From the IMG/VR virus record IMGVR_UViG_2690316161_000025: DNA of 44,064 bases; one strand, 5' to 3'. Made by a program: the position numbers and the translations under genes. How positions within the stretch are numbered: position 1 is the stretch's first letter; every line of letters begins with the position of its first letter. Of the stretch, positions 20,709 to 44,064 are shown piece by piece. Source of the stretch: a virus. Lineage: Duplodnaviria > Heunggongvirae > Uroviricota > Caudoviricetes. The notes under the pieces were generated by a model. That model did no database searches. It saw nothing but the letters and a program-made list of their open reading frames with translations, and was not told the origin of the DNA.

Positions 20709-20898
20709 ACCCGCAGCGGGAAAAGCCATCCGTGACCCGCTCACGATGAAATTACTGGCTCCGGAGGGAGAAGAAAAGCCCCGTAACAGTTTCTGGATAC
20801 GTCGCCTTGCAGCCGGTGATGTGGTTGAAGTCGGGAGCACCGAAAACACGGCGGATGATACCGACGCTGCGCCGAAAAAACGGAGTAAATCGAAATGA
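20692..20898 (+). CDS. Small hypothetical protein (68 aa) upstream of sheath
   Basis: ORF with SD aggaaaagga; basic C-terminus. Confidence 0.5.
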
Positions 20899-22382: not shown

Positions 22383-22391
22383 GGAGCATTT

Positions 22392-22748: not shown

Positions 22749-22757
22749 GGGGAAACA

Positions 22758-23192: not shown

Positions 23193-23336
23193 TATTGAGA
23201 AAGCGGCGACAGCGATTGGCGTTATTCTGAAAAGTGGCCCGGAATGGGCCTTATCCCTCCCGCTGTCCCGCTTTTTCCGGCACTGCCAGCAGGCTAAAAC
23301 CCTCTCTCAATATCACCGTTAAATCAGGAAATCTCT

Positions 23337-25412: not shown

Positions 25413-25416
25413 AACC

Positions 25417-26904: not shown

Positions 26905-28036
26905 TACCGTCACGCTGCGAACGGATGGCAGGCTTTTTACCGGCTGGACGTCAGTCTCTGTCACCCGCTCCATTGAATCCGTAGCCGGATATTTTGAGCT
27001 GGGGGTGAATGTGCCACCGGGTACAGATTTATCCGGGCTGGCACCGGGGAAGGCGTTCACGCTGGAAATCGACGGGCAGATTGTCTGCACCGGTTATATC
27101 GATTCGCGGCGACGCCAGATGACCGCTGACAGCATGAAAATCACTATCGCCGGACGTGACAAAACGGCTGACCTGATTGACTGTGCTGCCGTTTACAGTG
27201 GCGGACAGTGGAAAAACCGCACACTGGAGCAGATTGCGCGTGACCTGTGCGCTCCTTATGGCGTTACCGTTCGCTGGGAGCTTTCCGATAAGGAAAGTTC
27301 GGCAGCTTTTCCCGGCTTCACGCTGGACCATTCAGAAACCGTTTATGAGGCGCTGGTGCGTGCCTCCCGCGCACGCGGTGTACTGATGACCAGCAATGCC
27401 GCAGGAGAGCTGGTATTCAGCCGGGCTGCCAGCACAGCCACTGATGAGCTGGTTCTCGGAGAAAATCTGCTGACACTGGATTTTGAGGAAGACTTCCGCG
27501 ACCGGTTCAGCGAATACACCGTCAAGGGGTATGCCCGCGCAAACGGTGCTGAGGGTGATGATATTGATGCGAAAAGTATCGTCTCCCGGAAAGGGACCGC
27601 CACTGACAGTGATGTAACCCGTTACAGACCGATGATCATCATTGCTGACAGCAAAATTACGGCGAAGGATGCACAGGCCCGCGCCCTGCGTGAGCAACGC
27701 CGCAGACTGGCAAAATCCATCACCTTTGAGGCTGAAATTGACGGATGGACTCGCAAGGACGGGCAACTCTGGATGCCGAACCTGCTGGTCACTATTGATG
27801 CCTCGAAATATGCCATCAAAACCACGGAATTACTGGTCAGCAAAGTCACCCTGATACTGAATGACCAGGACGGGCTGAAAACCCGCGTCAGCCTTGCACC
27901 ACGCGAAGGCTTTCTGGTGCCGGTTGAAAGCGACCGTAAAAACAGGAAAGGCGGCGACAGTAACGGCGGTATTGATGCGCTGGTTGAAGATTATTATCGC
28001 AGACACCCGGAGAAAACGCCGCCGTGGAAAGAGTAA
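26897..28036 (+). CDS. P: Baseplate hub protein (Mu P), 379 aa
   Basis: ORF overlapping N end; position in baseplate cluster. Confidence 0.75.
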
Positions 28037-28617
28037 ATGATTTCGCCCTGAACCGCCTGCTGACGCCGCTGATGCGTCGTGTGCGCCTGATGCTTGCGCG
28101 CGCTGTTGTTAACGTGATTAACGACGGGCGAAAGGTTCAGAACCTGCAGGTCGGCCTGCTGGATGATGAGGAATCTGATGAAGTGGAGCGCCTGCAAAAT
28201 TACGGGCATTTCAGCGTTCCCCTGCCGGGAGCAGAGGCGCTGATTGCCTGTGTAGGCGCACAACGTGATCAGGGGATTGCCGTTGTGGTGGAAGACCGCC
28301 GCTACCGCCCGACAAATCTTGAACCGGGTGATGCAGGCATTTACCACCACGAGGGGCATCGTATCAGGCTGACAAAGGACGGACGCTGCATCATTACCTG
28401 TAAAACGGTTGAGGTTTACGCTGATGAAAGTATGACCGTTGACACACCCAGAACCACGTTTACCGGCGACGTTGAGATCCAGAAAGGTCTGGGCGTTAAA
28501 GGTAAAAGCCAGTTCGACAGCAATATTACTGCCCCGGATGCCATCATCAATGGCAAATCGACGGATAAGCATATCCACCGTGGCGACAGCGGCGGAACCA
28601 CGGGGCCAATGCAATGA
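28024..28617 (+). CDS. Q: Baseplate central spike protein (Mu Q)
   Basis: GTG start 28024 overlapping P; 197 aa. Confidence 0.7.
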   Translation: MERVNDFALNRLLTPLMRRVRLMLARAVVNVINDGRKVQNLQVGLLDDEESDEVERLQNYGHFSVPLPGAEALIACVGAQRDQGIAVVVEDRRYRPTNLEPGDAGIYHHEGHRIRLTKDGRCIITCKTVEVYADESMTVDTPRTTFTGDVEIQKGLGVKGKSQFDSNITAPDAIINGKSTDKHIHRGDSGGTTGPMQ

Positions 28618-29051
28618 CCGATTTAGCCATTATCTGGACGAACGGACGCGGCGATATTGCACAGGATGGCATTGATATGCTGACCGACGACAGCCTGACA
28701 ACCGATGTGACAATCTCCCTGTTTACAGACCGGCGCGCGCTGGATTCTGACACGCTGCCGGATGGTTCAGATGATCGCCGTGGATGGTGGGGTGACAGTT
28801 ACCGCGACCGCCCCATCGGTTCGCGGTTGTGGCTGTTATCACGTGAAAAAGCCACACCGGATACGCTGGAACGCGCCAGAGGGTATGCCGAAGAGGCGCT
28901 GGAATGGCTGAAAACAGCGGGCCGGGTAAGTGCGATTAACGTCAGAGCGGAACAGTTACATCAGGGCTGGTTATACCTCTACATTGCACTGACATTACCG
29001 GATGGTTCCGTTATTCCTTATGAGTTTAAAGCAGCATTTAACGGGGTTTAA
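28614..29051 (+). CDS. V: Baseplate wedge protein, gp25/GPW-like (Mu V), 145 aa
   Basis: ATGA overlap; 145-aa product in baseplate cluster. Confidence 0.75.
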   Translation: MTDLAIIWTNGRGDIAQDGIDMLTDDSLTTDVTISLFTDRRALDSDTLPDGSDDRRGWWGDSYRDRPIGSRLWLLSREKATPDTLERARGYAEEALEWLKTAGRVSAINVRAEQLHQGWLYLYIALTLPDGSVIPYEFKAAFNGV

Positions 29052-30134
29052 ATGGCTTATTCACCACCGACATTATCATCGCTGATTGCCCGTACAGAAC
29101 AGAATATTGAACAGCGCCTGCCGGGTAGCTGGCCTCAGGCCCGTGAAAAAACGCTGAGTGCCATTGCTTATGCTCAGGCGGGCCTTGCTGCCGGTTGTCA
29201 CGAGCATATTTCATGGGTTGGACGGCAGATTATCCCGTCGACAGCAGATGAAGATGAGTTGCTGGAGCACTGCCGGTTCTGGGGCGTGCGCCGCAAACAG
29301 GCGACAGCCGCCAGCGGCCCGCTGACTGTCACCACATCGGCAGCGACCACCATTCCTGCCGGTACACGCTGGCAGCGTGCTGATGGTGTGGTTTACAGCC
29401 TGGCTGATGCCATTGTGATTGACCGTGCAGGAACGACGGAAATTACCGTTACCGCACTGGCTGCCGGTGAAGCAGGAAATACCGGTGAGAATACCCTTTT
29501 AACGTTGATCACCCCGGTTGCCTGTGTTGTTTCCGATGCCATCACTGTAAAAGGGTTTTCCGGTGGGGCTGATATTGAGAGTGCAGCGGAGCTGCTGTCA
29601 CGGCTGGAATATCGTGTCCAGTATCCTCCGTTCGGCGGTAATCAGTTTGATTATGTTCGCTGGGCGCGTGAAGTCAGCGGCGTTACCCGTGCCTGGTGTT
29701 TTCCGACATGGAAAGGCGGTGGCACAGTCGGGGTGACGTTTGTTATGGATAACCGGAGCAATATTTTTCCACAACCGGCAGACGTGGAACGCGTGGCGGA
29801 TTATATCGCCGGTCATACTGACCCGATCACCGGTCTGATTGTCGGACAGCCTGACGGTGTAAATGTCACTGTATTTGCGCCAAAGGCAAAGCCGGTAAAT
29901 CCACGGATTTATATATCACCGAAGACAGCCGAACTGAAACAGGCTATTACCCACGCCATTAATACCATGTTTTTTAATGAGGTGACGCCGGGCGGCGCAC
30001 TTGCCCCCTCCCGTATTATCCGTGCGGTGGCAGGTGTTACCGGTCTGGATGATTTTGAAGTGCGTTTCCCGACAGAGATCCAGCGTTCGGAGAATACGGA
30101 ACTGTTAACACCGGGGACAATTGAATGGCTGTAA
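29052..30134 (+). CDS. W: Baseplate J-like protein (Mu W), 360 aa
   Basis: 360-aa ORF in baseplate cluster. Confidence 0.8.
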   Translation: MAYSPPTLSSLIARTEQNIEQRLPGSWPQAREKTLSAIAYAQAGLAAGCHEHISWVGRQIIPSTADEDELLEHCRFWGVRRKQATAASGPLTVTTSAATTIPAGTRWQRADGVVYSLADAIVIDRAGTTEITVTALAAGEAGNTGENTLLTLITPVACVVSDAITVKGFSGGADIESAAELLSRLEYRVQYPPFGGNQFDYVRWAREVSGVTRAWCFPTWKGGGTVGVTFVMDNRSNIFPQPADVERVADYIAGHTDPITGLIVGQPDGVNVTVFAPKAKPVNPRIYISPKTAELKQAITHAINTMFFNEVTPGGALAPSRIIRAVAGVTGLDDFEVRFPTEIQRSENTELLTPGTIEWL

Positions 30135-30667
30135 CACCCTATCAGACGGCCTTTCTGCAATTACTGCCGTCAGGGCTTGCCTGGAATAAAAGCCCCGACA
30201 GCAAATTATCTGCGCTGGCGCAGGCCATCAGCGACGTGATTGCCACTGCGGCGGATGATGCGCGGCAAATGCTGCGGGAGCGTTTCCCGTCCACATCCCG
30301 CTGGTATCTGGGGGGGTGGGAATCATTTCTGGGGTTGCCGGACTGTACCAGCGAAAACGGCACCCTGTCCGAACGCCAGCGGGCTGCCGCGAATAAAATG
30401 CGTATGACCGGCAATCTGAGTCGGCGCTTTTATGAATGGCTGGCTGCGCAGTACGGTTTTACCGTCAGGCTGACGGATTCCACAGAAGGCCAGTGGGTTA
30501 CGCAGGTCAATATTTACGGTATTAAAAATTATCGCAACGCAACGGTGCTGGATAATGTTCTGACGCCGTTACGTGTTTATGAATCGGGTGCGCTGGAATG
30601 TTTACTGGAGAAATATAAACCCGCGCATCAGATTTATAAATTTGTTTACCATGACGGAGATAACTAA
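30125..30667 (+). CDS. R: Baseplate/tail protein (Mu R), 180 aa
   Basis: ORF overlapping W end and abutting S start. Confidence 0.7.
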   Translation: MAVTPYQTAFLQLLPSGLAWNKSPDSKLSALAQAISDVIATAADDARQMLRERFPSTSRWYLGGWESFLGLPDCTSENGTLSERQRAAANKMRMTGNLSRRFYEWLAAQYGFTVRLTDSTEGQWVTQVNIYGIKNYRNATVLDNVLTPLRVYESGALECLLEKYKPAHQIYKFVYHDGDN

Positions 30668-32022
30668 TGTTTTATATTGATAACGACAGCGGCGTAACCG
30701 TCATGCCGCCCGTATCCGCCCAGCGTAGTGCTATCGTTCGCTGGTTTTCAGAAGGTGACGGGAATAATGTTATCACATGGCCCGGCATGGACTGGTTTAA
30801 TATTGTGCAGGCGGAGTTATTAAACACGCTGGAAGAAGCCGGTATTCAACCGGATAAAACAAAATTAAACCAGCTTGCACTATCCATTAAAGCCATTATG
30901 AGCAATAACGCACTGCTGATAAAAAATAACCTCAGCGAAATTAAAACTGCCGGGGCATCAGCACAGCGTACAGCACGTGAAAATCTGGATATTTATGATG
31001 CCAGCCTGAACAAAAAAGGACTCGTTCAGCTAACCAGTGCCACTGACAGCCCCAGTGAAACGCTGGCAGCCACCGCAAAAGCGGTGAAAATTGCGATGGA
31101 TAATGCCAGTGCCCGTCTGGCAAAAGACCGGAACGGAGCAGATATTCCCAATAAGCCGCTGTTTATCCAAAACCTCGGTTTACAGGAAACGGTAAACAAG
31201 GCTGGTAACGCTGTTCAGCGTTCTGGCGATACAATGACCGGAAAACTGAATCTACCACAGACATCTGCATTCGGCGTTGATACCGATAATGCACTGGGTG
31301 GTAATTCCATTACTCTCGGAGATAACGACACTGGTATTAAACAGGGCGGAGACGGTGTCCTTTTATTCTATTCAAATGGACAACTGGCATTTGGGCTTCA
31401 ACCCGCATCTGCTGATTTTTATAAGCGGGTTGCATACATTCCTCAGGGAATAATTCCTGATGGAAGTGGCGCATTTGCAGACCAGTTGAATAATGCCACC
31501 GCGCCTTTTGTTCAGACGCAGTTTGCCTGGAATCCCACTCCTGGTGGTCATTACGTGCCGATAGTTAAGGGCTTGTCCATTCGCAATGGACAGGGCTATC
31601 CCGGCGCGGTCAGCTTTGGTTATTTGCTGACAGAACAGTATGGATTTCCGGTTCCATGTATTCATATGCGTGGCGATGGCGGTAATGATGCTTTATGGCA
31701 GTTTAACCCGAACGATAAATCTTTTATTTCACCGGGTGCTCTTGTTGCGGGTGGCATCATTTATAACACCGATGGAAATATATTTGGCGGGTGTTGGGGT
31801 TCAAATTTAGCTGATTATCTCAATAGCACATATGTAAGAGACATTCGACTTGGTAGCGCAGAATCAATATCAGCATGGCGAGGCCCTGGTTACTGGGATA
31901 CTTCTGGATATGTTCTGACCGCAGCCGGAAACAGCAACACCGATGAATTTATTGATACATTAACCAGAAGGCCTATTCAGAAGTTGATTGGTGGGACATA
32001 TTATAACGTTGTGAGTATTTGA
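30667..32022 (+). CDS. S: Tail fibre protein S (constant part Sc 30667-~31176 fused in frame to variable part Sv inside the G segment)
   Basis: 451-aa ORF; gixL lies inside the coding sequence at codons FIQNLGLQE. Confidence 0.85.
31163..31188. other. gixL, left Gin recombination site
   Basis: ttatccaaaacc-tc-ggtttacaggaa; inverted copy at 34355-34380. Confidence 0.8.
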
Positions 32023-32023
32023 C

Positions 32024-32551
32024 ATGATGCATTTAAAAAACATTAAAGCAGGGAACCCCAAAACACCTGAACAATACCAGTTAACCAAAAAAGCTGGAGT
32101 GGTCTGGCTTTATACTGAAGATGGTAAAAACTGGTACGAAGAACAAAAAAACTTTCAACCAGATACTATAAAAATTGCATACGATAAAAATAATGTGATT
32201 GTTACCGTAAGCAAAGATGTTTCAACTATTAACCCGGAAGGTTTAAGTGTTGTTGAAGTATCCGATATTACGGCAAATCGTCGCGCAGACAATAACGGAA
32301 ACTGGATGTTTCTGGATGGTAAAGTAGTAAAGCGGGAATATACAAAACAGGAGCTGCAACAGCAGGCAGAGTTACAAAAAGCCGCTTTGCTTTCCGAAGC
32401 GGAGTCTGTGATTCAACCGCTGGAACGTGCTGTCAGGCTGAATATGGCAACTAATGAGGAACGCGCACGACTGGAGTCATGGGAACGCTACAGTGTTCTG
32501 GTCAGCCGTGTGGATACGGCAAATCCTGAATGGCCACAAAAGCCTGAATAA
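32024..32551 (+). CDS. U: Tail fibre assembly protein U, 175 aa
   Basis: ATG one base after S stop; paralogue of minus-strand U'. Confidence 0.85.
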
Positions 32552-32556
32552 AAATT

Positions 32557-32576
32557 AAGGCCCGATAGCGGGCCTT
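32557..32576. terminator. Bidirectional hairpin between convergent U and U'
   Basis: aaggccc-gatagc-gggcctt; A/T run on the U' side. Confidence 0.45.
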
Positions 32577-32579
32577 GTC

Positions 32580-33113
32580 TCATTCTGGTTGTTCCGGGAA
32601 TGTTACAGGAAGAACAGAGGTATCTGTGGCATCAACCTGCTGCATGTATAACATCCAGTTAATGAGTCTTTGCCTGTCTGAATCGCTGATAATTCCCAGC
32701 GCAAGCTGTGTTTGCCAGCACTGCGTTTCCTCTCTGGCCTGTCGCAGCAAAATCTGTTTCTGAATTTCAGCCAGTTGACGTAGTTCTTCATCAGTCCGGG
32801 GGCGTTTCATGACCTTGCCATCCTGAAACACCCAGTCACCGAGAATATCGGCCCGGCGATTCGCTGTCGTGTCGGGTAATTCGACAACGCTCATTCCTTC
32901 CGGGTTAATAGACGACACATCTTTTTCAATATAGCGAATGATACCTCTGTCATCGTAAGCGATTTTTAGTGTGTCTGCCTGAAAGGCTTTTTGTGCCTCA
33001 TACCAGTTCTTACCATCTTCAGCGTAAAGCCAGATAACTCCGTGTTTCTTTGTTAACTCATACTGTTCCAGTGTTTTAGCGTTACCCGCTTTTATGTTCT
33101 TTAAGTGCATCAT
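32580..33113 (-). CDS. U': Alternative tail fibre assembly protein U' (177 aa), silent in this orientation
   Basis: Minus-strand [26 protein letters not shown]... paralogous to U. Confidence 0.85.
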   Translation of the reverse strand: MMHLKNIKAGNAKTLEQYELTKKHGVIWLYAEDGKNWYEAQKAFQADTLKIAYDDRGIIRYIEKDVSSINPEGMSVVELPDTTANRRADILGDWVFQDGKVMKRPRTDEELRQLAEIQKQILLRQAREETQCWQTQLALGIISDSDRQRLINWMLYMQQVDATDTSVLPVTFPEQPE

Positions 33114-33114
33114 A

Positions 33115-34362
33115 TTAAACGCTCGCTACATTATACCAGGTGCCATTTATATACTTTTGAACGGGTCTGTAATAAACGCCCGCTATATTATCGGCAGAGT
33201 TGGACCCTGTATCCTGAACATTAATACCAGACAATACATGACCTGACGGGCACTGGAAATTCCATGTTTGCCAGTTGTTCACACCATGATATTGCTGTGA
33301 ACCAAGACGAACATCTTTCACATAGCGGGAATCAAAATTCCCCCAGTTGCTGGGTTGTATCTGACCGTTAACAGCAAATATCACCGAGTTATCTGTATTT
33401 CGCTGACTATAGAAATGCCAGCCTGAATCATCACCAAGCTCTGCAACAGTTGGTCTTGACGAATTTCCCCACAAGCTAAATGATGCATTACGGGCAGCGG
33501 TATTTGCACTTGAAAGTGTGAAGAACTTACTTTCCCCAGCCTGAATACCCTTTAATGATCTTGCTGAACCATTTATAAAGCGGAATACATGCACACCATT
33601 AGCATAAGCATCCAGCACCCCATCACCATTTTGTTTAAACCCGGTATCGTTATCTCCTAAAACTATTGAATTTCCACCCAGGGCATTAGCCGTTCCAATC
33701 CCCAGATTTCCGCTAAAAATGGCATTAATACCGAGTATTGAGTGAGAACAATAAAACCCTCGCCCATTGTTAAAATCCAGAATGGCTTGTGCGTTCGTGC
33801 TTTCTGTCGCGGGATTAGTTGCTCCCCACTTATATGTTGTTTGACCGACAGTATAATCCTGAGTTGGAACAATAACCGTTAGCCCTTCTTCAGCAGAAAC
33901 CCGCACAGGAAAAGCCCTGCCTTCAACGTAAAAAACGCTGCATACATCATCTTCTTTAAGGCTTGTTACAATGGAATGGATTGCGCGCTCATTAGTCTGA
34001 TACGTCGAAAAATAACCTGCCGCATATGAACCACGATCAGTCCAGCCACCAGGCATTACCATTCCATTGAATTCGCAGTTATTCATTGCGTAATCACTAC
34101 TGGCACATGTGGTCGTTATAATCACTCTGGAAGCCAGCTCGCCAGTGCCGCCTGTGGAACGCCGGAAAATAACTGGATACCACTTTCCACCAATTGCATT
34201 AGACGGCGCATTAAATGCGTACTGCCGCATTCCTTTTTTCTTATCCACCTCGCCTTTGCTGTAAACATTAATGTTACTCAGGAAGCGATCCTTATCAGGA
34301 ATATCCGCGCCGTTCTGGTTTTTCTGTAATGCGCCAGAAGCCTGATTTACCGTTTCCTGCAA
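33115..34362 (-). CDS. S': S' variable part (S'v): promoterless, start-less alternative tail-fibre C-terminal module, expressed only after G inversion
   Basis: Minus-strand frame is open across gixR and would be in frame with Sc after inversion (..LQETVN.. shared at the gix site). Confidence 0.8.
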   Translation of the reverse strand: MQETVNQASGALQKNQNGADIPDKDRFLSNINVYSKGEVDKKKGMRQYAFNAPSNAIGGKWYPVIFRRSTGGTGELASRVIITTTCASSDYAMNNCEFNGMVMPGGWTDRGSYAAGYFSTYQTNERAIHSIVTSLKEDDVCSVFYVEGRAFPVRVSAEEGLTVIVPTQDYTVGQTTYKWGATNPATESTNAQAILDFNNGRGFYCSHSILGINAIFSGNLGIGTANALGGNSIVLGDNDTGFKQNGDGVLDAYANGVHVFRFINGSARSLKGIQAGESKFFTLSSANTAARNASFSLWGNSSRPTVAELGDDSGWHFYSQRNTDNSVIFAVNGQIQPSNWGNFDSRYVKDVRLGSQQYHGVNNWQTWNFQCPSGHVLSGINVQDTGSNSADNIAGVYYRPVQKYINGTWYNVASV

Positions 34363-34380
34363 ACCGAGGTTTTAGATAAT
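34355..34380. other. gixR, right Gin recombination site
   Basis: Reverse complement reads ttatctaaaacc-tc-ggtttgcaggaa. Confidence 0.8.
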
Positions 34381-34433
34381 GGCTGTTTCCGGCCTGCATG
34401 GCATGATTTGCGCTTTTAAACGGGAGATCCAGA

Positions 34434-35027
34434 GTGCTGATTGGCTATGTAAGGGTATCAACAAATGACCAGAATACAGACCTGCAACGAAACGCTCTTG
34501 TTTGTGCAGGATGTGAACAAATATTTGAAGATAAATTAAGCGGAACAAGGACAGACAGACCTGGATTAAAACGCGCTTTAAAGCGCCTTCAAAAAGGTGA
34601 CACACTTGTTGTCTGGAAACTGGATCGCCTCGGGCGAAGCATGAAACATTTGATTTCTCTCGTAGGGGAATTACGAGAGCGAGGGATTAATTTTCGCAGT
34701 CTTACTGACAGTATTGATACGTCATCTCCAATGGGGCGTTTTTTCTTCCACGTTATGGGTGCCCTGGCTGAGATGGAACGAGAACTAATCATCGAGCGAA
34801 CGATGGCTGGACTTGCTGCCGCCAGAAATAAAGGCCGTATTGGTGGGCGACCACCTAAACTAACCAAAGCGGAATGGGAGCAGGCCGGGCGTTTATTAGC
34901 ACAAGGAATCCCCCGCAAGCAGGTTGCATTGATCTACGATGTGGCCCTGTCAACTCTGTATAAAAAACACCCCGCGAAACGAACGCATATAGAAAACGAC
35001 GATCGAATCAATCAAATCGATCGGTAA
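34434..35027 (+). CDS. gin: Gin serine recombinase (DNA invertase)
   Basis: GTG start 34434 with SD gggag; product MLIGYVRVSTNDQNTDLQRNAL... with catalytic Ser at YVRVS; resolvase/invertase family. Confidence 0.95.
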   Translation: MLIGYVRVSTNDQNTDLQRNALVCAGCEQIFEDKLSGTRTDRPGLKRALKRLQKGDTLVVWKLDRLGRSMKHLISLVGELRERGINFRSLTDSIDTSSPMGRFFFHVMGALAEMERELIIERTMAGLAAARNKGRIGGRPPKLTKAEWEQAGRLLAQGIPRKQVALIYDVALSTLYKKHPAKRTHIENDDRINQIDR

Positions 35028-35035
35028 TACAGATC
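35001..35035. promoter_or_regulatory. Three clustered Dam GATC sites upstream of the mom promoter (methylation-sensitive regulatory region)
   Basis: GATC at 35001, 35019, 35032 spanning the gin stop codon. Confidence 0.6.
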
Positions 35036-35039
35036 GATT

Positions 35040-35109
35040 ATGTCTCAATAACCACACTCAACCCATGATGTTTTTTAAGATAGTGGCGAATTGATGCAAA
35101 GGAGGTGAG
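35040..35109 (+). promoter_or_regulatory. Pmom promoter / C-activator binding region, approximate
   Basis: Intergenic between gin and com; precedes SD aaggaggtgag of com. Confidence 0.45.
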
Positions 35110-35298
35110 ATGAAATCAATTCGCTGTAAAAACTGCAACAAACTGTTATTTAAGGCGGATTCCTTTGATCACATTGAAATCAGGTGTCCGCGTTGCAAAC
35201 GTCACATCATAATGCTGAATGCCTGCGAGCATCCCATGGAGAAACATTGTGGGAAAAGAGAAAAAATCACGCATTCTGACGAAACCGTGCGTTATTGA
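35110..35298 (+). CDS. com: Com, zinc-finger translational activator of mom (62 aa)
   Basis: [32 protein letters not shown]... with CxxC...CxxC; overlaps mom 5' end. Confidence 0.9.
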
Positions 35299-35944
35299 GT
35301 ATGAAGGCCAGATTGTTGGCTATGGTTCAAAGGAGCTGCGCGTTGAAACCATATCTTGCTGGCTGGCCCGCACAATTATTCAGACAAAGCACTATTCCCG
35401 CCGTTTTGTGAATAACTCTTACCTCCACCTGGGAGTATTCAGCGGACGCGATCTGGTTGGCGTTCTCCAGTGGGGATATGCCCTTAACCCCAACTCAGGT
35501 CGTCGTGTCGTGCTTGAAACGGATAACCGGGGCTATATGGAGTTGAACCGCATGTGGCTACACGACGACATGCCCCGCAACTCTGAATCACGGGCCATCA
35601 GTTATGCACTGAAAACCATAAGGTTACTGTATCCGTCAGTGGAGTGGGTTCAGTCTTTTGCAGACGAACGCTGCGGACGTGCTGGCGTTGTGTATCAGGC
35701 GTCAAATTTTGATTTTATTGGCAGCCATGAAAGCACGTTCTACGAGCTGGATGGTGAGTGGTATCACGAGATAACGATGAACGCGATTAAACGCGGTGGA
35801 CAACGAGGCGTGTATTTACGGGCTAATAAAGAGCGTGCCGTGGTGCACAAATTTAATCAGTATCGCTACATCAGGTTCCTGAACAAGCGAGCAAGGAAGC
35901 GACTAAATACCAAGCTATTCAAGGTTCAGCCATACCCTAAGTGA
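35219..35944 (+). CDS. mom: Mom DNA modification protein (adenine modification); true start may be GTG at 35249
   Basis: ORF overlapping the com 3' end in another frame; last gene before the Mu right end. Confidence 0.85.
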
Positions 35945-35964
35945 TCCCCATGTAATGAATAAAA

Positions 35965-35990
35965 AGCAGTAATTAATACTGCTGTTTCAT
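35965..35990 (+). terminator. Terminator hairpin after mom
   Basis: agcagt-aattaat-actgct followed by gtttcattt. Confidence 0.45.
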
Positions 35991-36059
35991 TTGAAGCGCG
36001 AAAGCTAAAGTTTTCGCATTTATCGTGAAACGCTTTCGCGTTTTTCGTGCGCCGCTTCA
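35990..36059. other. Mu right end (attR) with MuA end-binding sites; terminus at 36059
   Basis: Sequence tgaagcgcgaaagctaaagttttcgcatttatcgtgaaacgctttcgcgtttttcgtgcgccgcttca ends with the canonical Mu right-end terminus. Confidence 0.85.
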
Positions 36060-36157
36060 TGCGCAAAATTCACGCCACTGTCATATTTGTGAGCTACACG
36101 GGCATGTCGGTTGTACAAAAAATGTGAAGAGGAACAAATTTTTCCGCACGTTAGAGA

Positions 36158-36192
36158 CAAAAAAACCGCCTCAGGCAACATACCGGAGACGG
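36158..36192 (-). terminator. Probable rho-independent terminator downstream of pqiC
   Basis: On the minus strand, imperfect hairpin ccgtctccgg...cctgaggcgg followed by ttttttt. Confidence 0.45.
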
Positions 36193-36214
36193 TTATATTT
36201 ACAAATCTTTATAA

Positions 36215-36778
36215 TTAAGGTAGACGCTTTATCTCTTGTGCAATAGAAGCGGCTTCCTGACTCCAGACACCGGCCAGCACTTTAACCATCTCATCGTAAC
36301 CATCCTGAGTTTGCACTCCTTCCAGACGGAACGGACGTTTGATCAGTTGTCCCTGGTGGTTCAACAGCCACTCACCACTGACAATGACCTTGCCATCATA
36401 GCGACCGTTAAACTCCGTTACGGTAACATTGAGCGTGTCCTGGGCGCTTCCCAGAGGCTGGGAGGCAACCACCCAGCCGGGCAGTTGCGTACTCAGGTTG
36501 GCAACCAGGGTGTTGCGCAACTGTTGATCCAACGGGCTGGCCCACAAGTTGTTGTTGGCAATCACATACTTCACATCACTGGTTTGATAAACCACACCAT
36601 TCCCCGCCAGATAGTCAGGAACAGTGATCTGCTCTACCCATAACAGACGATTGCCCTGGCTGGCGGTACTTTGTGTACCGCTCTGCACCACAGGTAACTG
36701 GTAATAGTTTTTATTAATTTCGCCGGAGCTGCATCCGGCCAGCCACAGTGCTGCAATCGTCACTAGCCACTTTTTCAT
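36215..36778 (-). CDS. pqiC: PqiC (YmbA) lipoprotein of the Pqi intermembrane transport system, 187 aa
   Basis: MKKWLVTIAALWLAGCSSG... with lipobox LAGC; ATGA overlap with pqiB stop. Confidence 0.85.
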   Translation of the reverse strand: MKKWLVTIAALWLAGCSSGEINKNYYQLPVVQSGTQSTASQGNRLLWVEQITVPDYLAGNGVVYQTSDVKYVIANNNLWASPLDQQLRNTLVANLSTQLPGWVVASQPLGSAQDTLNVTVTEFNGRYDGKVIVSGEWLLNHQGQLIKRPFRLEGVQTQDGYDEMVKVLAGVWSQEAASIAQEIKRLP

Positions 36779-38415
36779 TGTTTCGCCCTCTTCGGCTCTG
36801 GATCTTTTTTGTCCTTCGCTTCAAATACCAGCGCGTTACTCTTCTCATTGAGCGTTTTCAGCACCGGTTGCAGTTCTCGCAACACCTGATCAAGGCGCTG
36901 CATATCCGCCACCATCTTGTTGTAGGCTGCGGAGCCAGGCTGGAAGCCCTGCATGCTGCGATTCAATTCACGCAACGTTGACTGCATATCCGTCGGCAAC
37001 TGCTGCATCGACTGGCTAGCGAGGATCTTGTTCATGCTATCCAGCGTCGTTTGCAGGTTTTTCATTGTGCGCTGACTTTCAGAAAGCGTACTGGTTGCCT
37101 GTTCAATCATCGGATTCAATGGCAGTTTGTTGATCTTATCCAACGCTTCCATCAGTCGTTGCTGGATTTGCGCCAGGCCGCCGCTAACGGTCGGGATAAT
37201 CTGATAACCATTAAATTCACGAATACCGGTTATTGCAGGCGTATTTGGATAGAAATCGAGATCAACATACAGTGCACCAGTGACCAGGTTTCCGGTTTTC
37301 AGCGATCCGCGTAAACCACGTTTCAACAATTCGCCAAGGTGCTCAACAACATCCGCATTTTCGCCAAGCTGCATTTTCAGCCGCTCTGGCTCGATACGAA
37401 TCAGTACCGGAATACGGTAATCATCGTTAAATGTCTGACGCATATTCGGCGCAAAGAATGGCACTTTGCTTACGGTACCCAGGCGAATACCCCGGAACTC
37501 TACCGGAGCTCCCGGTTGCAGACCGCGTACCGAATCTTTAAAGAACATCAGATAATCAATGTGATCGGTGTACAACGAATCCTGAATGCTCTTCTGATCA
37601 TCATACAAAACGAAAGCTGTTTTCGGTGCCACTGGCTGCCCTAAATCCAGACCTTCCGGCACATCAAAGCTGACACCGCCACTCAGCAGCGTTGTCAATG
37701 AGCCCATCTCCACACGCATCCCTGCTGACGTCAGATCAACCGCAATGCCACTATCTTTCCAGAAGCGAACATTGTTGGTCACCAGTCGGTCATAAGGTGC
37801 ATTGATGAACAGTTGATAGCTGATATTGCGTTTTTGTGTATCGAAGGTGCTGGTTTCAACCGAACCTACCCGATAGCCACGGAACAGCACCGGATCTCCT
37901 GGCGAGAGCTGCCCGGCTTTTTTGCTATCGAGAATCACACGGATACCTTTCGCATCAGGCGGGGCCAACGGTGGCGAGTCCAGCAAATCGTATTTATCCA
38001 TTTTGCTGCCTTTCGCGCCTGGCTGCAGTTCGATATAAACTCCAGACAGCAGCGTTCCCAGGCCGCTAATCCCTTCGCGACCAATCTGCGGTTTCACCAC
38101 CCAAAAGACGGTGTCTTTATGCAGCAATTTTTCCATACCGGAATTCAGCCGCGCTTTGATTTCAACGTGCGTCAAATCATCAGCCAGTGTGGCGCTTTCA
38201 ACCACGCCGACGTCAACGCTACGGCTTTTAATGGTGGTTTTGCCACCTTCAATTCCTTCCGCATTCGCGGTGATCAGGGTCACTTCCGGTCCCTGATGGC
38301 TGTAATGATAAAAAAGAACCCAGGCCCCAATGAGCGCCGTGACGATAGGAAATATCCACACGGGAGACCAGTTCTTCACTTTCTGGATTTTGGCTTCCCC
38401 ATTATTAGATTCCAT
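36775..38415 (-). CDS. pqiB: PqiB, MCE-domain periplasm-spanning protein (546 aa from MESNNGEAK...)
   Basis: Large minus-strand ORF with N-terminal TM segment and repeated MCE-like regions; ORF track start 38475 is an upstream extension. Confidence 0.85.
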   Translation of the reverse strand: MESNNGEAKIQKVKNWSPVWIFPIVTALIGAWVLFYHYSHQGPEVTLITANAEGIEGGKTTIKSRSVDVGVVESATLADDLTHVEIKARLNSGMEKLLHKDTVFWVVKPQIGREGISGLGTLLSGVYIELQPGAKGSKMDKYDLLDSPPLAPPDAKGIRVILDSKKAGQLSPGDPVLFRGYRVGSVETSTFDTQKRNISYQLFINAPYDRLVTNNVRFWKDSGIAVDLTSAGMRVEMGSLTTLLSGGVSFDVPEGLDLGQPVAPKTAFVLYDDQKSIQDSLYTDHIDYLMFFKDSVRGLQPGAPVEFRGIRLGTVSKVPFFAPNMRQTFNDDYRIPVLIRIEPERLKMQLGENADVVEHLGELLKRGLRGSLKTGNLVTGALYVDLDFYPNTPAITGIREFNGYQIIPTVSGGLAQIQQRLMEALDKINKLPLNPMIEQATSTLSESQRTMKNLQTTLDSMNKILASQSMQQLPTDMQSTLRELNRSMQGFQPGSAAYNKMVADMQRLDQVLRELQPVLKTLNEKSNALVFEAKDKKDPEPKRAKQ

Positions 38416-38419
38416 ACTG

Positions 38420-39288
38420 TCAGGACTCCTCATGCTCTGATTCAGGTTGACGATCCCACGACAAACGCGGGTCAAACGTCATAGCAGAAAACATTGTCAT
38501 TATGACGACTAAAGCAAACATTAATGCACCCATTGCCGGATAAATACTCATTAAACCTCCCATACGCACCAGCGCCGAGAGCACCGCGATAACGAAAACG
38601 TCAATCATCGACCAGCGGCCTACAAACTCAACAACTTCATAAATCAAATGCATTCTTTCACTGTCGCGCTTGCCATGCCCTTTGGCATCCCAACACAGCC
38701 ACGCGATGGCGATCATCTTTAACGTTGGCACCATAATACTGGCCAGAAAGATCACCGCAGCGACGGGATAAGAGCCTTCGCTCCATAACAGAATGACCCC
38801 AGCGAGAATCGTCGACGGCATCTTCGAGCCTAATAAATCCGTCACCATGATGGGCAAAATATTAGCCGGAAGATACAGCATGATGGACGTTACAAGCAGC
38901 GCGAGTGTCCACTGCAGGCTGTTTCTACGCCGAACGTACCCTTTGGTACTACAACGCGGGCACACGGGTTCATCAGCAGGAAGGATTGCCGTACAACAGG
39001 AGCACGAACGCAGCCCCTGACGTATCCCCGTGACGCCTGGTTTTAGCGGCTGGCGCAGTTCTGGCATCGGGGCGATGTCGTCCCATAACCAGCGACGATC
39101 AACGCACTGAAAAGCGCGCAGTTGCAGGACACAAAATAAACACCAGGGGAGAAAGCTGCTGCCTACCCCAATGCTGCCGTAAGCCATCAGTTTAACGAAA
39201 CTGACCAGCACACCAGCGAGGAAAATCTCCGCCATTCCCCAGGTTTTGAGTTGAAAAAGCACCCGTGCCAGTTGCTCTTTTAAACGGA
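38420..39288 (-). pseudogene. pqiA: pqiA, 3' portion only (about 289 C-terminal codons); 5' end replaced by Mu-derived sequence
   Basis: Minus-strand frame encodes multi-pass membrane protein with CxxC...CxxC (CSCCTA...CPRCS); the first 10 codons of the apparent ORF ([11 protein letters not shown]) are read from Mu gix/S sequence. Confidence 0.8.
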
Positions 39289-39308
39289 AAAACCTCGGTT
39301 TACAGGAA
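39283..39308. other. Chimeric gix-like site: pqiA-derived left half (aacggaaaaacc) joined to gixL core and right half
   Basis: Identity to 31169 onward begins at 39289; central tc and right half ggtttacaggaa identical to gixL. Confidence 0.75.
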
Positions 39309-40142
39309 ACGGTAAACAAGGCTGGTAACGCTGTTCAGCGTTCTGGCGATACAATGACCGGAAAACTGAATCTACCACAGACATCTGCATTCGGCGTTGA
39401 TACCGATAATGCACTGGGTGGTAATTCCATTACTCTCGGAGATAACGACACTGGTATTAAACAGGGCGGAGACGGTGTCCTTTTATTCTATTCAAATGGA
39501 CAACTGGCATTTGGGCTTCAACCCGCATCTGCTGATTTTTATAAGCGGGTTGCATACATTCCTCAGGGAATAATTCCTGATGGAAGTGGCGCATTTGCAG
39601 ACCAGTTGAATAATGCCACCGCGCCTTTTGTTCAGACGCAGTTTGCCTGGAATCCCACTCCTGGTGGTCATTACGTGCCGATAGTTAAGGGCTTGTCCAT
39701 TCGCAATGGACAGGGCTATCCCGGCGCGGTCAGCTTTGGTTATTTGCTGACAGAACAGTATGGATTTCCGGTTCCATGTATTCATATGCGTGGCGATGGC
39801 GGTAATGATGCTTTATGGCAGTTTAACCCGAACGATAAATCTTTTATTTCACCGGGTGCTCTTGTTGCGGGTGGCATCATTTATAACACCGATGGAAATA
39901 TATTTGGCGGGTGTTGGGGTTCAAATTTAGCTGATTATCTCAATAGCACATATGTAAGAGACATTCGACTTGGTAGCGCAGAATCAATATCAGCATGGCG
40001 AGGCCCTGGTTACTGGGATACTTCTGGATATGTTCTGACCGCAGCCGGAAACAGCAACACCGATGAATTTATTGATACATTAACCAGAAGGCCTATTCAG
40101 AAGTTGATTGGTGGGACATATTATAACGTTGTGAGTATTTGA
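39289..40142 (+). CDS. S: Sv variable part of tail fibre S (copy 2), no upstream constant part or start
   Basis: Identical to 31169-32022; frame enters from pqiA-antisense sequence. Confidence 0.7.
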
Positions 40143-40143
40143 C

Positions 40144-40671
40144 ATGATGCATTTAAAAAACATTAAAGCAGGGAACCCCAAAACACCTGAACAATACCAG
40201 TTAACCAAAAAAGCTGGAGTGGTCTGGCTTTATACTGAAGATGGTAAAAACTGGTACGAAGAACAAAAAAACTTTCAACCAGATACTATAAAAATTGCAT
40301 ACGATAAAAATAATGTGATTGTTACCGTAAGCAAAGATGTTTCAACTATTAACCCGGAAGGTTTAAGTGTTGTTGAAGTATCCGATATTACGGCAAATCG
40401 TCGCGCAGACAATAACGGAAACTGGATGTTTCTGGATGGTAAAGTAGTAAAGCGGGAATATACAAAACAGGAGCTGCAACAGCAGGCAGAGTTACAAAAA
40501 GCCGCTTTGCTTTCCGAAGCGGAGTCTGTGATTCAACCGCTGGAACGTGCTGTCAGGCTGAATATGGCAACTAATGAGGAACGCGCACGACTGGAGTCAT
40601 GGGAACGCTACAGTGTTCTGGTCAGCCGTGTGGATACGGCAAATCCTGAATGGCCACAAAAGCCTGAATAA
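40144..40671 (+). CDS. U: Tail fibre assembly protein U (copy 2)
   Basis: Identical to 32024-32551. Confidence 0.85.
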
Positions 40672-40699
40672 AAATTAAGGCCCGATAGCGGGCCTTGTC

Positions 40700-41233
40700 T
40701 CATTCTGGTTGTTCCGGGAATGTTACAGGAAGAACAGAGGTATCTGTGGCATCAACCTGCTGCATGTATAACATCCAGTTAATGAGTCTTTGCCTGTCTG
40801 AATCGCTGATAATTCCCAGCGCAAGCTGTGTTTGCCAGCACTGCGTTTCCTCTCTGGCCTGTCGCAGCAAAATCTGTTTCTGAATTTCAGCCAGTTGACG
40901 TAGTTCTTCATCAGTCCGGGGGCGTTTCATGACCTTGCCATCCTGAAACACCCAGTCACCGAGAATATCGGCCCGGCGATTCGCTGTCGTGTCGGGTAAT
41001 TCGACAACGCTCATTCCTTCCGGGTTAATAGACGACACATCTTTTTCAATATAGCGAATGATACCTCTGTCATCGTAAGCGATTTTTAGTGTGTCTGCCT
41101 GAAAGGCTTTTTGTGCCTCATACCAGTTCTTACCATCTTCAGCGTAAAGCCAGATAACTCCGTGTTTCTTTGTTAACTCATACTGTTCCAGTGTTTTAGC
41201 GTTACCCGCTTTTATGTTCTTTAAGTGCATCAT
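40700..41233 (-). CDS. U': U' (copy 2)
   Basis: Identical to 32580-33113. Confidence 0.85.
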   Translation of the reverse strand: MMHLKNIKAGNAKTLEQYELTKKHGVIWLYAEDGKNWYEAQKAFQADTLKIAYDDRGIIRYIEKDVSSINPEGMSVVELPDTTANRRADILGDWVFQDGKVMKRPRTDEELRQLAEIQKQILLRQAREETQCWQTQLALGIISDSDRQRLINWMLYMQQVDATDTSVLPVTFPEQPE

Positions 41234-41234
41234 A

Positions 41235-42482
41235 TTAAACGCTCGCTACATTATACCAGGTGCCATTTATATACTTTTGAACGGGTCTGTAATAAACGCC
41301 CGCTATATTATCGGCAGAGTTGGACCCTGTATCCTGAACATTAATACCAGACAATACATGACCTGACGGGCACTGGAAATTCCATGTTTGCCAGTTGTTC
41401 ACACCATGATATTGCTGTGAACCAAGACGAACATCTTTCACATAGCGGGAATCAAAATTCCCCCAGTTGCTGGGTTGTATCTGACCGTTAACAGCAAATA
41501 TCACCGAGTTATCTGTATTTCGCTGACTATAGAAATGCCAGCCTGAATCATCACCAAGCTCTGCAACAGTTGGTCTTGACGAATTTCCCCACAAGCTAAA
41601 TGATGCATTACGGGCAGCGGTATTTGCACTTGAAAGTGTGAAGAACTTACTTTCCCCAGCCTGAATACCCTTTAATGATCTTGCTGAACCATTTATAAAG
41701 CGGAATACATGCACACCATTAGCATAAGCATCCAGCACCCCATCACCATTTTGTTTAAACCCGGTATCGTTATCTCCTAAAACTATTGAATTTCCACCCA
41801 GGGCATTAGCCGTTCCAATCCCCAGATTTCCGCTAAAAATGGCATTAATACCGAGTATTGAGTGAGAACAATAAAACCCTCGCCCATTGTTAAAATCCAG
41901 AATGGCTTGTGCGTTCGTGCTTTCTGTCGCGGGATTAGTTGCTCCCCACTTATATGTTGTTTGACCGACAGTATAATCCTGAGTTGGAACAATAACCGTT
42001 AGCCCTTCTTCAGCAGAAACCCGCACAGGAAAAGCCCTGCCTTCAACGTAAAAAACGCTGCATACATCATCTTCTTTAAGGCTTGTTACAATGGAATGGA
42101 TTGCGCGCTCATTAGTCTGATACGTCGAAAAATAACCTGCCGCATATGAACCACGATCAGTCCAGCCACCAGGCATTACCATTCCATTGAATTCGCAGTT
42201 ATTCATTGCGTAATCACTACTGGCACATGTGGTCGTTATAATCACTCTGGAAGCCAGCTCGCCAGTGCCGCCTGTGGAACGCCGGAAAATAACTGGATAC
42301 CACTTTCCACCAATTGCATTAGACGGCGCATTAAATGCGTACTGCCGCATTCCTTTTTTCTTATCCACCTCGCCTTTGCTGTAAACATTAATGTTACTCA
42401 GGAAGCGATCCTTATCAGGAATATCCGCGCCGTTCTGGTTTTTCTGTAATGCGCCAGAAGCCTGATTTACCGTTTCCTGCAA
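41235..42482 (-). CDS. S': S'v (copy 2)
   Basis: Identical to 33115-34362. Confidence 0.8.
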   Translation of the reverse strand: MQETVNQASGALQKNQNGADIPDKDRFLSNINVYSKGEVDKKKGMRQYAFNAPSNAIGGKWYPVIFRRSTGGTGELASRVIITTTCASSDYAMNNCEFNGMVMPGGWTDRGSYAAGYFSTYQTNERAIHSIVTSLKEDDVCSVFYVEGRAFPVRVSAEEGLTVIVPTQDYTVGQTTYKWGATNPATESTNAQAILDFNNGRGFYCSHSILGINAIFSGNLGIGTANALGGNSIVLGDNDTGFKQNGDGVLDAYANGVHVFRFINGSARSLKGIQAGESKFFTLSSANTAARNASFSLWGNSSRPTVAELGDDSGWHFYSQRNTDNSVIFAVNGQIQPSNWGNFDSRYVKDVRLGSQQYHGVNNWQTWNFQCPSGHVLSGINVQDTGSNSADNIAGVYYRPVQKYINGTWYNVASV

Positions 42483-42500
42483 ACCGAGGTTTTAGATAAT
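42475..42500. other. gixR (copy 2)
   Basis: Identical to 34355-34380. Confidence 0.8.
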
Positions 42501-42553
42501 GGCTGTTTCCGGCCTGCATGGCATGATTTGCGCTTTTAAACGGGAGATCCAGA

Positions 42554-43147
42554 GTGCTGATTGGCTATGTAAGGGTATCAACAAATGACCAGAATACAGA
42601 CCTGCAACGAAACGCTCTTGTTTGTGCAGGATGTGAACAAATATTTGAAGATAAATTAAGCGGAACAAGGACAGACAGACCTGGATTAAAACGCGCTTTA
42701 AAGCGCCTTCAAAAAGGTGACACACTTGTTGTCTGGAAACTGGATCGCCTCGGGCGAAGCATGAAACATTTGATTTCTCTCGTAGGGGAATTACGAGAGC
42801 GAGGGATTAATTTTCGCAGTCTTACTGACAGTATTGATACGTCATCTCCAATGGGGCGTTTTTTCTTCCACGTTATGGGTGCCCTGGCTGAGATGGAACG
42901 AGAACTAATCATCGAGCGAACGATGGCTGGACTTGCTGCCGCCAGAAATAAAGGCCGTATTGGTGGGCGACCACCTAAACTAACCAAAGCGGAATGGGAG
43001 CAGGCCGGGCGTTTATTAGCACAAGGAATCCCCCGCAAGCAGGTTGCATTGATCTACGATGTGGCCCTGTCAACTCTGTATAAAAAACACCCCGCGAAAC
43101 GAACGCATATAGAAAACGACGATCGAATCAATCAAATCGATCGGTAA
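42554..43147 (+). CDS. gin: Gin serine recombinase (copy 2)
   Basis: Identical to 34434-35027. Confidence 0.95.
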   Translation: MLIGYVRVSTNDQNTDLQRNALVCAGCEQIFEDKLSGTRTDRPGLKRALKRLQKGDTLVVWKLDRLGRSMKHLISLVGELRERGINFRSLTDSIDTSSPMGRFFFHVMGALAEMERELIIERTMAGLAAARNKGRIGGRPPKLTKAEWEQAGRLLAQGIPRKQVALIYDVALSTLYKKHPAKRTHIENDDRINQIDR

Positions 43148-43229
43148 TACAGATCGATTATGTCTCAATAACCACACTCAACCCATGATGTTTTTTAAGA
43201 TAGTGGCGAATTGATGCAAAGGAGGTGAG

Positions 43230-43418
43230 ATGAAATCAATTCGCTGTAAAAACTGCAACAAACTGTTATTTAAGGCGGATTCCTTTGATCACATTGAAAT
43301 CAGGTGTCCGCGTTGCAAACGTCACATCATAATGCTGAATGCCTGCGAGCATCCCATGGAGAAACATTGTGGGAAAAGAGAAAAAATCACGCATTCTGAC
43401 GAAACCGTGCGTTATTGA
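43230..43418 (+). CDS. com: Com (copy 2)
   Basis: Identical to 35110-35298. Confidence 0.9.
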
Positions 43419-44064
43419 GTATGAAGGCCAGATTGTTGGCTATGGTTCAAAGGAGCTGCGCGTTGAAACCATATCTTGCTGGCTGGCCCGCACAATTATT
43501 CAGACAAAGCACTATTCCCGCCGTTTTGTGAATAACTCTTACCTCCACCTGGGAGTATTCAGCGGACGCGATCTGGTTGGCGTTCTCCAGTGGGGATATG
43601 CCCTTAACCCCAACTCAGGTCGTCGTGTCGTGCTTGAAACGGATAACCGGGGCTATATGGAGTTGAACCGCATGTGGCTACACGACGACATGCCCCGCAA
43701 CTCTGAATCACGGGCCATCAGTTATGCACTGAAAACCATAAGGTTACTGTATCCGTCAGTGGAGTGGGTTCAGTCTTTTGCAGACGAACGCTGCGGACGT
43801 GCTGGCGTTGTGTATCAGGCGTCAAATTTTGATTTTATTGGCAGCCATGAAAGCACGTTCTACGAGCTGGATGGTGAGTGGTATCACGAGATAACGATGA
43901 ACGCGATTAAACGCGGTGGACAACGAGGCGTGTATTTACGGGCTAATAAAGAGCGTGCCGTGGTGCACAAATTTAATCAGTATCGCTACATCAGGTTCCT
44001 GAACAAGCGAGCAAGGAAGCGACTAAATACCAAGCTATTCAAGGTTCAGCCATACCCTAAGTGA
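43339..44064 (+). CDS. mom: Mom (copy 2); window ends at its stop codon
   Basis: Identical to 35219-35944. Confidence 0.85.

Follow-up and report, generated by a model that had tools for sequence, protein, structure and literature searches.

The repeat and its source record

The window, that is, the whole 44,064-nt stretch of DNA analysed here, closes with a sequence that it has already contained once, and the question raised by this locus is whether the second copy reflects a duplication in the bacterial genome or a fault of the assembly. Self-comparison reproduced the exact direct repeat described in an earlier note made from the sequence alone: positions 39289-44064 equal positions 31169-35944 over 4,776 nt with 0 mismatches, the copies are spaced by 8120 nt (repeat family D1) and carry the G segment in the same orientation, and leftward of 31169 and 39289 the identity between them ends immediately. 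The source contig is CYBY01000018.1 (GCA_001285845.1; L006 in our comparisons), where the window occupies positions 30747-74810. The earlier note had proposed an extension to the right, and the deposited contig bears out what it expected there: the window is followed by 3,344 nt more of copy 2, identical to 35945-39288 (attR, pqiC, pqiB and a truncated pqiA), and then by native full-length pqiA, uup and rlmKL. The complete 8,120-bp tandem layout is present in the deposited record, with 8,119 of the 8,119 determined bases identical between the two copies. The gene content named in the earlier note agrees with Pfam matches on the called genes and with the RefSeq annotation of the empty site. Within the window, the second copy comprises the following features:

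39289-44064, plus strand: copy 2, exactly identical to 31169-35944, with its continuation seen in CYBY01000018.1
39289-39308: truncated gixL of copy 2, bases 7-26
42474-42499: gixR of copy 2
42554-43147: gin of copy 2
43230-43418: com of copy 2
43339-44064: mom of copy 2

The prophage and its host flank

Position 1 of the window corresponds to Mu position 1099, and the left ~1.1 kb of the prophage (c repressor, attL) lie outside the window. Positions 1-25000 are 97.8% identical to phage Mu (AF083977) over 25 kb, and the right-end part of the prophage matches Mu, D108 and SfMu. The traits of a Mu-species (Muvirus) prophage were found, including MuA and MuB genes (Pfam DDE_2/Mu-transpos_C and Phage-MuB_C, matched on identical proteins in relatives), the Mu right end at 36058, a gix-flanked G segment and gin-com-mom. 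By sequence comparison, this is not canonical Mu but a Mu-species relative whose G segment is divergent. It sits between rmf and pqiC, and the host match to 36059-39288 is 99.97%.

1-36058, plus strand: Mu-species prophage, from ner to the right end ...GCGCCGCTTCA, assigned by Mu identity, with host homology from 36059
36059-39287, minus strand: host DNA, 99.97% identical to E. coli ATCC 8739 pqiCBA (RefSeq annotation)
From 36059, at the start of the host DNA: remnant of the pqiC-rmf intergenic region
36215-36778, minus strand: pqiC (Pfam PqiC/ABC_trans_aux)
36775-38415, minus strand: pqiB (Pfam MlaD)
38420-39287, minus strand: 3' 289 codons of pqiA (Pfam PqiA)

No complete genome was found with the prophage at the pqiC site, and look-ups with MuB and MuA, aimed at the missing left portion of the source contig with attL, a target-site duplication and any further Ns, returned other lysogens only. 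Headful packaging was considered as a source of the 3.2 kb of host DNA and rejected, as packaging ends are imprecise and no gix-bounded second copy would be expected from it.

The invertible G segment

The repeat unit begins inside the left recombination site of the invertible segment, in the following context:

30667-32022: S, a part of which (Sv) lies in the G segment (Pfam Phage_fiber_2)
31163-31188, plus strand: gixL, 26 bp, TTATCCAAAACC-TC-GGTTTACAGGAA (inverted repeat I5; both arms and recombinant sites in G(-) relatives)
31169-34353, no strand assigned: invertible G segment, copy 1 (ORFs; Pfam Phage_fiber_2 and Caudo_TAP; opposite orientation in relatives)
32024-32551, plus strand: U (Pfam Caudo_TAP)
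32580-33113, minus strand: U' (Pfam Caudo_TAP)
33115-34362, minus strand: S'v (ORF)
34354-34379, minus strand: gixR, reverse complement TTATCTAAAACC-TC-GGTTTGCAGGAA (inverted repeat, arm sequences)
34434-35027, plus strand: gin, serine DNA invertase of 197 aa (Pfam Resolvase and HTH_7; annotated as gin or DNA invertase in Mu, D108 and SfMu)
35110-35298, plus strand: com (Pfam Zn_ribbon_Com)
35219-35944, plus strand: mom (Pfam Mom)

Two bases distinguish gixR from gixL, base 6 (T/C) and base 20 (G/A). The opposite orientation of the G segment was seen in relatives L002-L005 and L007, and recombinant gix sites occur in L002-L005, which indicates that phages of this type actively invert the segment. 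Among the assemblies with the prophage at the pqiC site, JHSN01000027.1 is G(-) and JHRP01000021.1 is G(+), and since both orientations occur there, the G segment inverts. The repeat unit starts at gixL base 7 (31169), and copy 2 likewise starts at gix base 7, the first base common to both arms (TTATCC|AAAACC... vs TTATCT|AAAACC...). The same gix base forms the end of SONB01000018.1 (L007), a contig of an unrelated draft assembly, and the copy boundary is a natural contig end, as is characteristic of false duplications.

The junction

One position separates the two copies:

39288, no strand assigned: junction base, 'N' in CYBY01000018.1 and 'A' in the window

This base is the sole mismatch between the window and CYBY01000018.1 over 14,711 nt, and the N is the only non-ACGT character in 20.8 kb of the record. 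The sequence across the junction reads ...CTCTTTTAAACGG(A)AAAACCTCGGTTTACAGG..., the central base being N in the public record, and position 39288 is a scaffold join between a left sequence ending ...TTTTAAACGG and a contig beginning AAAACCTCGG.... An N at this base means that the join itself was never sequenced; a real tandem duplication would be expected to show a sequenced novel junction, and identical copies parted by a gap or an unknown base are the pattern of a false one. No microhomology was found at the junction, and the pqiA sequence at its left end (...AAACGG) is featureless. The junction was absent from the 5,426 complete E. coli genomes, from the phage genome collection and from IMG/VR; the junction-spanning ORF was absent from the gene index, and Logan look-ups with this ORF, the truncated PqiA products, the 262-aa Sv ORF and S gave no contig with the prophage at pqiC. 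Position 39288 of pqiA was also considered as a recurrent hotspot of contig breaks or polymorphism and rejected: products truncated at this codon occur in 68 index blocks and those truncated at codons close by in 137 and 77, so that the 68 represent background, and none of the unrelated contigs ending in this codon carries the prophage.

A real and very recent head-to-tail duplication of the 8.1-kb unit (G-gin-com-mom-attR-pqiC-pqiB-pqiA') would account for the complete in-register layout ending in intact pqiA, for the left sequence stopping at an unremarkable base of pqiA and for a read-pair scaffolder placing both pieces side by side; the identity of 8,119 of 8,119 bases fits a very recent event. 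The route would be homology-independent illegitimate recombination between sister chromosomes, with the assembler leaving the junction as N. We consider this unlikely, as the junction base is N, the junction shows no microhomology, the end point on the right is the gix break base (a coincidence of roughly 1 in 10^3-10^4 for a random break point), the junction is found in no other genome among the collections searched, and two other assemblies at the site are single-copy, including one with 100% identity across 18.6 kb; an equivalent join at an N, in an arrangement that cannot exist, is described below. The narrower reading, a very recent duplication in one isolate that broke within the left, Gin-bound half-site of gixL, is quite improbable. 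If true, it would suggest that a Gin-gix complex or the gix inverted repeat can initiate illegitimate recombination with host DNA close by, independently of homology, and a gixL-seeded event would duplicate gin, mom and pqiBC. The earlier note had listed recent duplication or amplification and unequal sister-chromatid exchange among its causes, where the evidence favours an assembly error instead, and its suggestion of selection through gin/mom or pqi dosage found no support.

The location of one end point inside the 26-bp gixL, with an intact gin alongside, raises the possibility of a Gin-catalysed event between gixL and a pseudo-gix in pqiA on the sister chromosome. Serine invertases of the Gin/Hin family exchange strands at the central dinucleotide. 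In the G(-) relatives, the recombinant gix sites confine the crossover to the interval from base 7 to base 19, whereas the present join falls after base 6 and before base 7, at a distance of 6 nt from the dinucleotide where strands cross over; the native pqiA sequence around the break (…AAACGGA|CCGGTAATTCC) is unlike any gix half-site, and here too the junction base is N. With neither a crossover at the central dinucleotide nor a gix-like partner, a Gin-mediated origin was rejected as extremely unlikely.

Mu-type phages transpose replicatively and rearrange host DNA, and multi-copy lysogens occur (three copies in CP151071.1, for example), which would leave room for a transposition-derived rearrangement or a second, 5'-deleted Mu copy in pqiA. 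Products of transposition are bounded by Mu ends, yet copy 2 starts inside gixL and not at attL, no new joints at attL/attR termini were found, and the attR of copy 2 borders the same pqiC flank and not the rest of pqiA, a pattern of duplication or overlap and not of insertion. This origin is likewise very remote.

Other assemblies of the prophage at this site

None of the three further assemblies in which the prophage occupies this site (JHRP01000021.1, JHSN01000027.1 and CYCB01000036.1) contains the tandem repeat. JHRP01000021.1 is 100.000% identical to window positions 20667-39288 (18,622 nt) and then continues into native pqiA, with a single copy; JHSN01000027.1 also has a single copy. These two are independent assemblies of the same clone without the repeat, as would be expected if the duplication were false.

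CYCB01000036.1 (GCA_001283405.1), from the adjacent accession series, contains the same prophage at pqiC in the layout rc(37582..34361) + N + 23890..34440. On the left of the single N, the sequence ends at gix base 19, which is the other branch point of the site; on the right, it begins inside the tape-measure gene, at an arbitrary base that lies 7,279 nt from gixL. The pieces stand in an inverted arrangement, with 34361-34440 repeated at both ends, and at the contig end a homopolymer stands in place of 8 nt of the gix core. This arrangement is biologically impossible. It represents a comparable error elsewhere, from what we infer to be the same pipeline as that of CYBY01000018.1, because the accession series are adjacent.

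Proposed origin of the second copy

Taken at the level of the sequence records, the second copy is very probably a false tandem duplication produced by scaffolding or gap filling of a short-read draft; the genome most likely holds one copy, and the reading of the repeat as a biological gene duplication is probably wrong. Among the three causes offered in the earlier note, assembly error is the one supported, by the junction N, the gix break base, the misjoin in CYCB01000036.1 and the single-copy assemblies, although its qualification as 'repeat-induced' did not hold. The records themselves show where the breaks lie, the N and the comparable misjoin in CYCB01000036.1; the software and the run-away process in the following model are inferred.

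The sequenced culture would have held both G orientations, and the assembly graph would then branch at gix base 6/7 (outer flank C vs T) and again at base 19/20 (inner A vs G), with contigs ending at both branch bases. Contigs abutting at gix would have only bases 7-19 (13 nt) in common, an overlap that a scaffolder may leave unmerged, placing a single N between them. A base-by-base gap filler could then follow the majority orientation on one side; since its extension could never meet the other edge, one N would stay and the process would repeat at every iteration, copying kilobases already present in the neighbouring contig. On the left, extension from gixL would have run through the G segment, gin, com, mom, attR, pqiC and pqiB and on into pqiA, with an arbitrary stop after 8,119 nt, and the right side would be the original contig beginning at gix base 7.

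GapFiller trims 10 nt, extends in one-base steps and needs a majority of 0.7 at ambiguous bases, and it refuses closures more than 50 nt off the gap estimate (PMC3446322); in one widely used pipeline, it is run for 120 iterations (PMC5320598). The extension per iteration would be 68 nt in the present case (8,120/120) and 61 nt in CYCB01000036.1 (7,279/120), values in keeping with about 1+50+10 nt in each GapFiller round. Several points weigh against the artefact model: GapFiller should have been able to close a simple L-to-G join, except where the gap had been misestimated; the G(+)/G(-) ratio should be equal at both gix boundaries, and a stall on one side while the other passes needs an extra assumption; the left end of the junction is an unremarkable base of pqiA; and a read-pair scaffolder normally needs pairs linking pqiA' to the start of G, as a real junction would give.

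Significance

At face value, the record would imply doubled gin, com, mom and pqiBC, an extra truncated pqiA and a second G segment. Analyses of gene content, copy number and prophage boundaries would carry all of this over, which labelling it as a probable artefact prevents. Invertible phage segments (Gin/gix and relatives) that are mixed within a culture can break contigs in automated short-read pipelines and, apparently, also yield spurious duplications and inversions of several kilobases; the warning sign is one isolated N at base 6/7 or 19/20 of gix. As for the biology itself, a Mu-species prophage that lies between rmf and pqiC and switches its tail-fibre cassette is ordinary and well known.

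Comparison with known systems

Homotype false duplications have been described at contig boundaries of scaffolded assemblies (Rhie et al. 2021, PMC8081667), and the present case shares with them identical head-to-tail copies with a gap character between, boundaries at contig ends and absence from independent assemblies with the prophage at the site. It differs in the trigger, which here would be heterogeneity of a phage invertible segment in a clonal culture and not diploid heterozygosity or long-read overlap, and in the size of the copy, since 8.1 kb is far above short-read length and suggests iterated extension instead of a single read-length overlap. Spontaneous RecA-independent tandem duplications of enterobacteria are similarly direct and head-to-tail, with identical copies and a novel join inside a gene; unlike in these, the defining junction here is N and one end point is an assembly break point.

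The Gin/gix system accounts for the assembly break and did not make the junction. It resembles the G-inversion system of phage Mu in gene order, the 3.1-kb segment, the inverted 26-bp gix sites, the downstream gin-com-mom, the occurrence of both orientations among relatives and the recombinant gix sites. Unlike in the G segment of Mu itself, the variable tail-fibre parts are closest, at about 94%, to those of Yersinia Mu-like phages.

Extent of the repeat

A self-comparison of the window showed that 31169-35944 recurs at 39289-44064 with a spacing of 8,120 (4,776 nt, 0 mismatches), which bears out the earlier note's statement that a unit starts for a second time at 39289 with 100% identity; to the left of the repeat, identity between the copies stops abruptly. 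The gene content claimed there (G segment, gin, com, mom, Mu right end, pqiC, pqiB and partial pqiA) was also correct.

Features of the first copy and its borders (window positions)
31163-31188: gixL, inverted relative to gixR, bounds the G segment (the invertible tail-fibre cassette)
34354-34379: gixR, inverted relative to gixL, bounds the G segment
Downstream of the G segment, before the Mu right end: gin, com, mom
Ending at 36058: Mu right end, ...GCGCCGCTTCA
After the Mu right end, up to 39288: host pqiC, pqiB and the 3' two-thirds of pqiA

Copy 2 is opened by a 262-aa ORF. The window corresponds to positions 30747-74810 of the public record CYBY01000018.1 (GCA_001285845.1; 106,330 bp), and rightward extension, suggested as a check in the earlier note, revealed that copy 2 runs on for another 3,344 nt that match 35945-39288 exactly, followed by native sequence with full-length pqiA, uup and rlmKL; the deposited record contains the complete 8,120-bp tandem layout. 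The repeat is certainly present in the data, but the genome itself most likely lacks it.

The junction base

Comparison of the window with CYBY01000018.1 gave a single difference in 14,711 positions: window 39288, the base immediately preceding copy 2, is 'N' in the record and 'A' in the window. This N is the sole non-ACGT character in 20.8 kb of the record, and the join ...CTCTTTTAAACGG-N-AAAACCTCGGTTTACAGG... was, therefore, never determined as sequence. The N was presumably replaced by A during window preparation; apparently ambiguous bases were substituted at that stage, scaffold joins being thereby hidden from a reader of the sequence alone.

Uninterrupted pqiA reads ...GGA/CCGGTAATTCC at the break (slash), and gixL is preceded by TTATCC; no microhomology was found at the junction between native pqiA and the sequence before gixL. 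The pqiA end is not a recurrent contig-end position (68 blocks versus 137 and 77 at nearby codons), and it has no explanation of its own, the sole account being that extension stopped there. A genuine recent duplication, where a real junction would account naturally for the pqiA end, keeps some probability for that reason, but it is very improbable, the junction base being N.

In several unrelated E. coli assemblies and metagenome scaffolds (L010, L008, L011-L017, loci retrieved for comparison), pqiA is split into ORFs of ~130 and ~280 aa, the latter GTG-initiated product being the same as that of the truncated copy in the window; the split may represent a frameshift allele or a sequencing error.

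The gix sites as predicted branch points

The gixL arm is TTATCC-AAAACCTCGGTTT-A-CAGG and the gixR arm (reverse complement) is TTATCT-AAAACCTCGGTTT-G-CAGG, so that these 26-bp sites differ at bases 6 and 20. In relatives of the G(-) orientation, the sites are recombinant (TTATCT...TTTACAGG and TTATCC...TTTGCAGG), which shows that inversion is active and places the crossover between bases 7 and 19, consistent with the central TC. In a culture of mixed orientation, the path from the G interior outward would branch after base 7, and the path inward from either flank after base 19. Copy 2 begins at gix base 7, and a contig of the unrelated draft assembly SONB01000018.1 ends at the same base; this coincidence of the other end of the repeat with an assembly break point also speaks against a genuine duplication. 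A Gin-catalysed origin of the junction was excluded, because the junction lies 6 nt off the crossover and nothing in pqiA at that point resembles gix.

Further assemblies carrying this insertion

The prophage at the rmf/pqiC site was absent from all 5,426 complete E. coli genomes, and the pqiA'/gix junction was not found in any complete E. coli genome searched. The insertion is common to at least four draft assemblies (CYBY, CYCB, JHRP and JHSN). JHRP01000021.1, in the G(+) orientation, matches window 20667-39288 with 100.000% identity and passes directly into native pqiA; JHSN01000027.1 has the same insertion in G(-), with 3 mismatches in 7.7 kb. Both are single-copy, contrary to what a genuine duplication would suggest.

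CYCB01000036.1, from the accession series adjoining CYBY, offers a parallel case that also weighs against a genuine duplication. It consists of the reverse complement of window 37582..34361, an 'N' and window 23890..34440, an inverted layout with 34361-34440 repeated at both ends, which is not plausible as a biological structure. The left side of the N-join (position 3223 of locus L048) ends ...TTATCTAAAACCTCGGTTT, at base 19 of gixR, where the second of the two branch points is predicted; to the right of the N, the sequence starts at an arbitrary base of the tape-measure gene, 7,279 nt left of gixL. In the last 80 nt of the record, 8 nt of the gixR core (AACCGAGG, ~window 34361-34369) are overwritten by the homopolymer TTTTTTTT. 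CYCB01000036.1 and the window have the same signature, in which a single N joins a gix branch point to an arbitrary position 7-8 kb away.

Proposed origin by scaffolding and gap filling

Contigs meeting at gix would have only bases 7-19 in common. If these 13 nt are too few for a merge, as may be the case, a scaffolder would insert one N. Gap fillers such as GapFiller trim 10 nt from the edges and then extend base by base, stall at ambiguous bases with a majority below 0.7, and reject a closure whose inserted length deviates from the gap estimate by more than 50 nt (PMC3446322). After one flank had grown beyond the point where the neighbouring contig begins, the gap could no longer be closed, and every later round would add some tens of bases already present in that contig. 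In one bacterial pipeline in wide use (Velvet, SSPACE, GapFiller), GapFiller goes through 120 iterations (PMC5320598); 8,120/120 gives 68 nt per round for the window and 7,279/120 gives 61 nt for CYCB01000036.1, values that would be of the expected size under this gap-filling model. False duplications at contig boundaries, which scaffolding converts to gap-separated tandem copies, are a documented class of error (PMC8081667).

The prophage and its insertion site

The genuine biology is ordinary: a Mu-species prophage whose G segment switches, inserted 99 nt upstream of rmf. Over 25 kb the prophage shares 97.8% identity with AF083977, window base 1 being Mu 1099, the start of ner, and on sequence identity it is a member of the Mu species; its variable tail-fibre parts are unlike those of Mu itself. 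The insertion point, 36058/36059 (3159/3160 in locus L001), lies in the pqiC-rmf intergenic region, the 99 nt being counted to the start codon of rmf in the locus without the prophage; rmf is therefore cut off from its upstream DNA.

The G segment (31169-34353) is mosaic. Its Sv/U side barely matches Mu's own G segment and shares only ~94% identity with Yersinia Mu-like phages (vB_YpM_Tongde) and with an E. coli 2014C-3075 tail-fibre gene; the remaining prophage is 97-99% identical to Mu/D108. An inverted repeat in the segment (32213-32334 versus 32803-32924; 122 nt, 74%) represents homologous parts of U and U', the oppositely oriented tail-fibre assembly genes, and a short direct repeat in the tape-measure gene (24819-24850/24921-24952; 32 nt, 75%) is probably due to chance or to repetition within the protein. 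In the complete E. coli genome CP151071.1 (L023-L025), three Mu-like prophages occupy separate chromosomal sites, and their MuB is identical.
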